Assembly: GCF_003790525.1 (NCBI RefSeq)
Contig: NZ_CP033635.1
Direction: 5' to 3' (one strand)
From: Escherichia coli
Lineage (GTDB): Bacteria; Pseudomonadota; Gammaproteobacteria; Enterobacterales; Enterobacteriaceae
Length of the DNA: 64,000 bases
Part shown: positions 30,962 to 33,098 of the stretch, piece by piece
How positions within the stretch are numbered: the stretch's first letter is position 1
Layout: each line of letters begins with the position of its first letter
Notes under the pieces: generated by a model
What the model was told of the DNA's origin: nothing
The model's input: only the letters and a program-made list of their open reading frames with translations
The model's database searches: none
Program-made: the position numbers and the translations under genes

Positions 30962-31607
30962 GTCGAAAATGATTGTGCGCACCAAGTTTATTGATCGCGC
31001 CTGTCACTGGACCGTGGTGATTTGCTTCTTCCTGGTGGCGCTGTCCGGGATTTCGTTCTTCTTCCCGACGCTGCAATGGCTGACGCAAACCTTCGGTACG
31101 CCGCAGATGGGACGCATTTTGCACCCGTTCTTCGGCATTGCGATTTTCGTCGCGCTGATGTTTATGTTTGTGCGTTTTGTGCATCACAACATCCCGGATA
31201 AGAAAGATATTCCGTGGCTGTTGAACATTGTCGAAGTATTAAAAGGCAATGAGCACAAAGTGGCGGATGTTGGTAAGTACAACGCCGGGCAGAAGATGAT
31301 GTTCTGGTCGATCATGAGCATGATTTTCGTGCTGCTGGTGACCGGGGTGATTATCTGGCGTCCGTACTTTGCGCAGTACTTCCCGATGCAGGTTGTTCGC
31401 TACAGCCTGCTGATTCACGCGGCTGCGGGTATCATCCTGATCCACGCCATCCTGATCCATATGTATATGGCATTCTGGGTGAAAGGATCGATTAAAGGGA
31501 TGATCGAAGGGAAGGTGAGCCGTCGCTGGGCGAAGAAACACCATCCGCGCTGGTATCGTGAAATCGAGAAGGCAGAAGCGAAAAAAGAGAGTGAAGAAGG
31601 GATATAA
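30954..31607 (+). CDS. fdnI: Formate dehydrogenase-N gamma subunit (cytochrome b556)
   Basis: Start at ATG 30954 ([10 protein letters not shown]…) preceded by gaggaggag RBS; 217 aa; overlaps the fdnH stop by 8 bp. Confidence 0.9.
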
Positions 31608-31629
31608 TCTCTTTTGAACTTTAAGCTGA

Positions 31630-31660
31630 AAATGGCGCTTTAAGAAGCGCCATTTTTTTA
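31630..31660 (+). terminator. Rho-independent terminator after fdnI
   Basis: Stem aaatggcgctt-taag-aagcgccattt followed by ttttttta. Confidence 0.65.
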
Positions 31661-31942
31661 TTGCGTAACCAGACGGCGCAGTCGCGACACATCCACCGTT
31701 TTTTCAGCCTCTGCCAGGCTCCAGGCGTTTTGCAGATTCAGCCACATTTGCGGCGAACTGCCGATCACCACGGAAAGTTTAATTGCCATTTCTGGCGTCA
31801 AAGCTGCTTTTCCGGTCAGCAATCGGCTTGCCGTTGAGGGAGCAATTTCCATTGCTCTGGCAAACTCGCGCAGGCTGACATTAAGTTCGTCCAGTGATTC
31901 CTGAATAATGTCCCCCGGGCGGGGATGATTGGCCATTTTCAT
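31658..31942 (-). CDS. yddM: XRE-family HTH protein, HigA-like antitoxin homologue
   Basis: 94-aa product from the [13 protein letters not shown]… start, with an HTH (…[23 protein letters not shown]…); the ORF-track start at 32020 is an extension. Confidence 0.8.
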
Positions 31943-32087
31943 CAGTGTCTTTACTCTCAGTAGCGTTCCTTCACCAGGAGCACTATCATTATTGTTCCTT
32001 CCTACGCAACAATAATCCACTTAGCCATTTCATGTTGGAGAGTGTGCGATGCTGCGACCCGAACATGGCAGTCGCAGCAAAGGCCTC

Positions 32088-33098
32088 TTAGCGGCGGAAA
32101 TCAATCACCATACGGCCACGGATTTTGCCTTCTTCCATCTCAGTAAAGATTGTGTTGATGTCCGCTAACGGACGCAGGGCGACCTTCGGTACCACTTTGC
32201 CTTCGGCGGCAAACTGGAAGGCTTCAGTTAAATCCTGGCGCGTGCCGACCAGCGAACCGACCACTTCAATACCATCCAGCACAAGGCGTGGGATATCCAG
32301 GCTCATAGACTCCGGCGGCAGACCGACTGCCACAACACGCCCGCCTGCACGGACAGCATCAACTGCCGAGTTAAACGCAGCTTTAGCTACCGCTGTCACC
32401 ACCGCAGCGTGAGCGCCACCGGTTTTTTCCTGCACAATTTTGGCGGCGTCTTCGGTGCGTGAGTTAATCGCTAAATCAGCGCCCATTTCGGTTGCCAGTT
32501 TTAACTGCTCATCATTGACATCAATGGCGATCACTTTGGCGTTAAAGACATTCTTCGCGTATTGCAGGGCGAGGTTACCCAGACCGCCAAGACCGTAGAT
32601 AGCAATCCACTGCCCTGGACGAATTTTTGACAGCTTAACGGCTTTGTAGGTGGTGACCCCCGCACAGGTAATGCTGCTGGCCGCCGCCGAGTCCAGGCCA
32701 TCCGGCACTTTAACCGCGTAATCGGCGACCACGATGCATTCTTCAGCCATCCCGCCATCAACGCTGTATCCGGCATTTTTTACTGAACGGCAGAGCGTTT
32801 CGTTACCACTGTTACAGTATTCGCAATGACCGCATCCTTCATAGAACCACGCCACGCTGGCACGATCGCCTGGTTTTAATGAAGTGACACCTGGGCCAAC
32901 TTCTGCCACCACACCAATACCTTCGTGTCCCAGAATCACGCCGGTTTTGTCACCAAAATCGCCATTCTTAACATGAAGATCGGTATGACATACACCACAA
33001 CACTCCATTTTCAGCAGGGCTTCGCCATGTTTCAGTGAGCGCAGTGTTTTATCCGTAACGTCAACATGATGATCCTTCGTAACAACTGCAGCCTTCAT
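32088..33098 (-). CDS. adhP: Zn-dependent alcohol dehydrogenase, propanol-preferring
   Basis: 336-aa MDR-family ORF from MKAAVV… with the GHEGIG zinc motif; aggagg RBS upstream. Confidence 0.9.

Follow-up and report, generated by a model that had tools for sequence, protein, structure and literature searches.

The closest described systems to yddM are HigBA toxin–antitoxin modules, among them that of the Proteus vulgaris plasmid Rts1 (PDB 4MCT/4MCX), a plasmid-borne pair with its toxin in place and the toxin gene first. The orthologous pair in Escherichia coli shares with it the toxin-first order, a 92-aa toxin and a toxin C-terminus reading EDYH. Counted from the alignments, this E. coli toxin is ~57% identical over its full length to P. 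vulgaris HigB, a ribosome-dependent endoribonuclease (112 bits), and YddM is ~41% identical to HigA. The Rts1 promoter, Phig, has two inverted-repeat operators flanking its core, an architecture like that at yddM, although the yddM operators (TGTTSC-N7-GGAACA) are lineage-specific and unlike the Rts1 operators in sequence. Pseudomonas aeruginosa HigA is likewise a HigA-family helix-turn-helix dimer that acts on palindromes; unlike YddM, it still has its toxin partner, and it represses mvfR besides its own operon (PMC6987408).

Within E. coli, HigA of strain CFT073 and HigA-2 of AIEC NRG857c are identical in sequence to YddM (100% over 94 aa; WP_000781370.1 in NRG857c), and NRG857c higA-2 occupies the same chromosomal place, between fdnI and adhP. 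Both of these strains carry a 92-aa toxin gene directly upstream, whereas the strain analyzed here does not; its yddM locus differs from Rts1 both in being chromosomal and in missing the toxin. Bustamante and Vidal (2020) listed the pair as TA20 (parE-2/higA-2) in NRG857c and reported that HS and K-12 encode the antitoxin partner alone at this locus (PMC7232551). We checked their coordinates, which correspond to the fdnI-yddM-toxin-adhP locus. The orphan state of yddM is thus already known: the HigA structure has been solved, and the absence of the toxin from K-12 and HS has been published. A comparable case is ybaQ (higA-1), likewise a chromosomal antitoxin without a working toxin in K-12, of which toxin-bearing versions circulate in the species.

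The window analyzed here, a single 64-kb stretch of E. coli DNA taken at its full length, matches E. coli SMS-3-5 (NC_010498.1) with 100% identity throughout the region compared. The yddM gene is framed in it by two terminators:

31629..31656, no strand assigned: terminator hairpin common to the convergent fdnI and yddM (inverted repeat I1, arms 31629-31640 and 31645-31656)
31658..31942, minus strand: yddM coding sequence with the stop codon counted in; 94-aa product, RefSeq WP_000781370.1
32050..32079, minus strand: adhP terminator hairpin, GCTGCGAC ... GTCGCAGC (inverted repeat I3)

The 145-bp spacer between adhP and yddM given in the initial annotation (31943-32087) is exact; the adhP stop codon, on the minus strand, begins at 32088. 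On the other side of yddM, the length of the 50-bp gap (31608-31657) was also right, but it had been measured from the fdnI terminator, and its true start is the stop codon of fdnI, which runs on the plus strand and ends at 31607. The terminator hairpin (12-nt arms, a 4-nt loop and a T-run after it on the plus strand) lies inside this gap and ends 1 nt short of the yddM stop codon. The adhP hairpin is common to toxin-less and toxin-bearing alleles (97-100% identical in toxin-bearing loci) and marks the left edge of a diverged spacer segment. A promoter and terminator consensus scan of 31550-32200 made no calls, and no Rfam family reached threshold in the yddM region, the sub-threshold matches to sRNA models being driven by the fdnI terminator hairpin alone. 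A 120-aa, GTG-started ORF (31658-32020) was considered as the real yddM and rejected; its 26-aa extension crosses the operators, is unconserved and is missing from both the RefSeq annotation and the crystal structure.

The fdnI-yddM gap varies in length among strains. It measures 50 bp in the window, has one additional unit of ~178 bp in O145 and has two such units in tandem in K-12 (L004 609-835 and L003 609-1014 compared), each unit containing REP-like sequences and one copy of the terminator hairpin. In strain MLI109 an IS200/IS605 transposase is inserted in this region. Further along the window, the mechanical ORF list gives fdnG from 27653 only (27653-30064, 803 aa), because it is broken by an upstream in-frame stop, which we take to be the known selenocysteine TGA of formate dehydrogenase-N.

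The 94-aa product had been described as a HigA-class XRE protein, and the family models and solved structures agree. YddM scores 93.7 bits against TIGR02607, the HigA equivalog (cutoff 47.7; residues 3-81 covered), and 39 bits against PF01381 HTH_3 (cutoff 23), with an XRE/Cro-type helix-turn-helix. All 94 of its residues match those of the 'antitoxin HigA' of PDB 2ICP/2ICT (100% identity); the 2ICP entry is attributed to E. coli CFT073, and the HigA dimer has been described (PMC6987408). The next-best solved relatives are P. vulgaris HigA (70 bits, at the identity given above) and then P. putida GraA (47 bits). Because its best matches are all antitoxins, YddM is not closer to XRE regulators outside toxin–antitoxin systems. 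A family trait of HigA, a position directly downstream of a HigB-family toxin gene, is absent in the window and present at the orthologous locus of other genomes, so assignment by gene context rests on orthology.

The toxin itself is missing. As first described, no toxin-sized ORF flanks yddM on either side, the longest spacer ORFs being 24-25 aa, so that the 145-bp spacer with its ORFs of at most 25 aa leaves the window without a complete type II HigBA module. When we queried it by tblastn with the orthologous 92-aa toxin, nothing was found in 31550-32200, and the whole 64-kb window gave chance-level matches only (best E = 0.32). There is accordingly no protein-level remnant of the toxin around yddM and no conserved small toxin ORF adjoining it in this genome; SMS-3-5 itself is among the genomes with the toxin-less spacer. 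At a DNA identity of at least ~70%, the cognate toxin occurs in one place only in each E. coli genome that carries it and nowhere else. The yddM of the window is a solitary antitoxin, with no cognate toxin adjacent to it or, at the DNA level, elsewhere.

Across the species, the same locus exists in two states. A megablast search with 31500-32300 against 5,426 complete E. coli genomes recovered the yddM locus in 5,413 of them, a subset of which carry between yddM and adhP a gene annotated as 'type II toxin-antitoxin system RelE/ParE family toxin'. Its ORF is 279 bp long (92 aa; protein WP_000605675.1), overlaps the yddM start by 1 nt (TGATG; for example in L001, L002 and NRG857c, L047) and matches PF05015 HigB-like at 64 bits. 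The toxin gene is found in 1,331-1,333 of the 5,426 genomes (~25%), always in single copy, and the toxin-less spacer in 4,081 (about three quarters); the 1,331 toxin-bearing and 4,081 toxin-less genomes together account for approximately all of those holding the locus. A second, independent route to an orphan antitoxin is also present within E. coli: in 545 genomes (~10%; for example GN03449, L051 701-978), an intact yddM follows a higB with a 1-nt deletion near codon 32 (CACCGACTC to CACCACTC), flagged as frameshifted by PGAP, at a site that is intact in 612 genomes. Over the 48-mer compared, all 545 genomes have the same sequence, which points to a single lineage that has been sampled heavily.

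Beyond E. coli, a scan of one genome per bacterial species yielded 41 loci encoding YddM relatives, 29 of them assessable close relatives. An intact HigB-like ORF stands at the same spacing in 24 of these 29, covering E. albertii, two cryptic Escherichia lineages, ~13 Citrobacter species, Cedecea, Buttiauxella, Pluralibacter, Enterobacter, Chimaeribacter and Erwinia. Escherichia, Citrobacter and a few others have fdnI on the downstream side; on the upstream side, adhP is found in Escherichia and in two Citrobacter. Since an intact toxin gene is found in so many of these relatives, the adhP-higB-higA-fdnI arrangement is ancestral and the window allele is derived. The comparison of syntenic loci that the initial annotation had proposed thus shows yddM directly preceded by an intact HigB-like gene in ~25% of E. 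coli and nearly all related species. It also bears out the idea of a solitary HigA-like protein derived from a degraded toxin–antitoxin module, although not as a decayed pseudogene: the toxin is almost wholly deleted, leaving a vestige of at most 22 nt.

Damage to the toxin is recurrent. In five other lineages, the toxin was independently damaged while the antitoxin stayed intact, through an internal deletion (L009), frameshifts (L015 and L029) or loss of all but the toxin C-terminus (L030 and L032). The survival of the antitoxin here and in at least five other lineages is explained by the one order in which such a module can safely decay: the toxin has to go first, since prior loss of the labile antitoxin leaves the cell poisoned.

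What the toxin-less allele has kept upstream of yddM resembles the control region of a HigBA operon. Reading from yddM towards adhP, the candidate elements are as follows:

31943..31964, minus strand: 22-nt leader between O2 and the yddM ATG, GCTACTGAGAGTAAAGACACTG, with a GAGAG Shine–Dalgarno-like motif
31964..31982, minus strand: candidate operator O2, TGCTCC-N7-GGAACG, a pattern match (consensus TGTTCC-N7-GGAACA)
31982..31987, minus strand: candidate -10 hexamer GATAGT, inferred, between O1 and O2
31993..32011, minus strand: candidate operator O1, TGTTGC-N7-GGAACA, an exact pattern match kept in all Escherichia and Citrobacter alleles
32004-32009, minus strand: candidate -35 hexamer TTGCGT, overlapped by O1

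The two putative operators are 19-bp palindromes 10 bp apart and are the only two matches to the O1/O2 pattern in the whole 64 kb. The left half-site of O2 in SMS-3-5 reads TGCTCC, a single T>C mismatch. When the toxin-less allele is set against the toxin-bearing allele of E. coli, 22-24 of the 24 half-site positions are conserved as against 6-7 of the 14 operator spacer positions (Fisher p = 0.0003-0.006). The toxin-bearing allele of Citrobacter has the same pattern of half-sites and spacers relative to E. coli, and the O2 half-sites are kept across Escherichia and Citrobacter while the spacers diverge. The 10-mer between the operators is conserved at nine of its ten positions among toxin-less, toxin-bearing and Citrobacter alleles. 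Judged from the sequence, O1, O2 and the -10-like core are arranged as one would expect of a promoter autoregulated by HigA, and the toxin-less allele has kept this arrangement. A simple sigma-70 consensus scan called no promoter in the adhP-yddM spacer; genomic SELEX with RpoD holoenzyme gave a signal for yddM at the adhP-yddM position in K-12 (PMC3946193).

The 22-nt leader offers a tentative clue to how the toxin was lost. Aligned to the final ~27 nt of the toxin ORF, it scores better than 98.5% of shuffles (74 of 5,000 reach the score), and it shows no alignment to the toxin 5' leader (2,950 of 5,000 shuffles do as well). The leader may therefore be what is left, in decayed form, of the 3' end of higB, and may provide yddM with its ribosome-binding site. 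The toxin 3' end is likewise kept where the toxin has decayed independently in other genera. An attractive alternative is a simple deletion by microhomology between two ATGAA sequences, one at the start of the toxin and one at that of yddM. We rejected it on the dissimilarity of the leader to the toxin 5' leader; because the leader aligns to the 3' end and not to the 5' leader, retention of a 3' vestige is preferred.

The remainder of the toxin-less spacer is far more diverged from the toxin-bearing allele than the genes around it, and two further features are needed to describe it:

31988..32016, minus strand: 29-nt element with perfect 9-nt inverted repeats, ATTATTGTT/AACAATAAT, around the O1 spacer (inverted repeat I2)
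32017..32050 (spacer nt 38-71), minus strand: toxin-less-specific segment, without a match in any toxin-bearing locus by blastn-short

Between the window and the toxin-bearing locus L001, yddM is 99.3%, fdnI 99.5% and adhP 98.7% identical. From the adhP terminator to the yddM ATG, by contrast, the operator core alone aligns (81%), and neither the 22-nt leader nor 32017-32050 has a close counterpart in the toxin-bearing allele. Identity over the operator core, counted from printed strings, is 81% between the toxin-less and E. coli toxin-bearing alleles, 83% between the toxin-less allele and Citrobacter, and 79% between the latter two. By these comparisons, the toxin-less spacer did not arise by simple deletion from the toxin-bearing allele circulating in E. 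coli.

Several searches were made for the origin of this spacer. A chimeric query for a toxin-bearing progenitor with toxin-less-type upstream sequence found, among the 5,426 E. coli genomes, none that covers both halves, and two pattern scans of metagenomes gave 0 matches. In the 41 related loci of other species, the terminator and the operator core alone match, and the only plasmid matches are chromosomal adhP-yddM fragments captured by IS26 or ISEcp1. Chromosomal adhP is found beside one or other of these elements on the conjugative plasmids NZ_CP086392.1 and NZ_AP018396.1 (L048 and L049), and one such capture also brought yddM and fdnGHI.

The toxin-less allele is itself diverse. In a second toxin-less haplotype (L052 636-664), the 11-nt center of the 29-nt element is inverted exactly, from GCGTAGGAAGG to CCTTCCTACGC. 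This has the look of a small inversion polymorphism within the putative operator, arisen by template switching or through a hairpin. This second type falls in an 80-90% identity class over a 110-nt query and is found in 1,061 of 5,426 E. coli genomes. A separate oddity is O157:H7 TR01 (L050 1102-1246), whose adhP-yddM spacer has the same 145 bp as the window and is a mosaic. Its O1 element, the 29 nt bounded by inverted repeats, sits between two blocks of toxin-bearing type, one of 35 nt following the terminator and one of 45 nt ahead of yddM, in which the final 44 nt of the toxin ORF are included. That the block lengths come out equal points to an artefact of reference guidance or polishing, yet the block edges coincide with the inverted repeats.

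The toxin-bearing allele has its own peculiarity: the higB-yddM cassette is 96-98% identical in DNA between E. coli (L001) and E. albertii (L006 2223-2785), against only 88% for adhP next to it, a hint of either a recent exchange between Escherichia species or an unusual constraint on synonymous sites. The divergence of the toxin-less spacer would be compatible with an allele that is old or introgressed, its flanks having been homogenized by recombination. A toxin-less operator core as far from the E. coli toxin-bearing one as the latter is from that of Citrobacter, flanks at ~99% and a cassette at 96-98% would also fit an old balanced polymorphism, as opposed to recent decay, in which a spreading, addictive higBA cassette is opposed by a long-maintained orphan allele that gives immunity, with linkage eroded by recombination up to the indel. 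We regard this reading as unlikely.

We consider it highly probable that yddM descends, as the antitoxin gene, from an ancestral chromosomal higBA module, higB having been almost wholly deleted and the promoter and operators retained. Although their yddM genes differ by 2-14 nt, SMS-3-5, K-12, toxin-bearing E. coli and E. albertii all encode the same YddM protein (WP_000781370.1). The yddM genes of the window and of K-12, both toxin-less, differ by seven synonymous and no non-synonymous changes; recombination with toxin-bearing alleles confounds the assignment of these changes, such that synonymous-only differences cannot be cleanly attributed to toxin-less lineages. The pattern suggests that YddM is under purifying selection, with its maintenance after toxin loss confounded by recombination between alleles. 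In K-12, ChIP-exo placed YddM among ten confirmed DNA-binding proteins and among six with a palindromic motif (PMC6237786).

These observations make it improbable that yddM is a non-functional relic, undecayed since the toxin was lost and doing nothing. Such a relic would fit with the lack of a phenotype firmly tied to yddM, the only screen match being the epetraborole hypersusceptibility of the Keio yddM deletion, which was not complemented; slow decay would be expected of so small a gene, and one O2 half-site is mutated in SMS-3-5. It is harder to reconcile with a protein that is invariant across E. coli and E. albertii, with synonymous differences only, in a gene kept in all but 13 of 5,426 genomes, or with operator half-sites conserved amid a deeply diverged spacer. 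The toxin-less haplotype is also old, because its types 1 and 2 differ by the inversion and by an 80-90% identity band over 110 nt, and YddM binds DNA in vivo in K-12.

Still less probable is an ancestral toxin-less state, with the toxin gene arriving later in some E. coli by insertion upstream of a regulator that already stood alone. The likeness of the higB-yddM cassette between E. coli and E. albertii, set against that of adhP, does suggest horizontal movement of the toxin-bearing cassette, and toxin-bearing IAI39 and CE10 stand beside toxin-less SMS-3-5 within what we take to be one phylogroup. However, in all other species sampled, as far out as Erwinia and Xenorhabdus, the toxin or its recognizable remains are found at the same spacing; YddM is a member of the HigA equivalog family; and the two-operator higBA promoter is still there in the toxin-less spacer, possibly together with a vestige of the toxin 3' end. 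Insertion is therefore largely refuted already. There is scarcely any chance of a cryptic partner toxin, be it an unannotated spacer ORF or a cognate toxin elsewhere that is controlled in trans: 24-25-aa spacer ORFs do exist (for example 31989-32066, minus strand), as do other HigA/HigB-like loci in E. coli such as that of ybaQ (PMC7232551), but the ORFs of the spacer run across the operators and the terminator of adhP, have no toxin similarity and lie in sequence that is absent from or different in toxin-bearing alleles, no E. coli genome has a second DNA-level copy of the cognate toxin, and no Rfam family at threshold in the region points to a known RNA there.

Returning to loss of the toxin from a HigBA module, we envision the following course. 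A module of the P. vulgaris Rts1 type, toxin first, stood between adhP and fdnI, and almost the whole higB ORF was removed in the lineage that supplied the window allele, in which the higBA promoter with O1 and O2 now lies 22 nt upstream of yddM. YddM dimers would still occupy both operators, repressing their own transcription. The concept of anti-addiction comes from chromosomal ccd systems. YddM could have been kept for neutralizing HigB from toxin-bearing alleles or mobile elements, as a form of anti-addiction immunity, for new DNA targets, or for both.

In itself the finding is of little consequence, as the gene is annotated as HigA, its structure is solved and the loss of the toxin from commensal and laboratory E. 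coli is published. Its interest lies in providing a clean and well-sampled case of toxin–antitoxin decay in which the toxin went first, deleted in ~75% of genomes and frameshifted in ~10%, while the antitoxin and its operators persist under constraint. A modest residual puzzle is the age and origin of the toxin-less haplotype, whose divergence from the toxin-bearing one far exceeds that of the flanks. If the orphan is indeed a long-maintained immunity allele against a spreading higBA, the locus would be a tractable natural system in which to test the anti-addiction hypothesis in E. coli.
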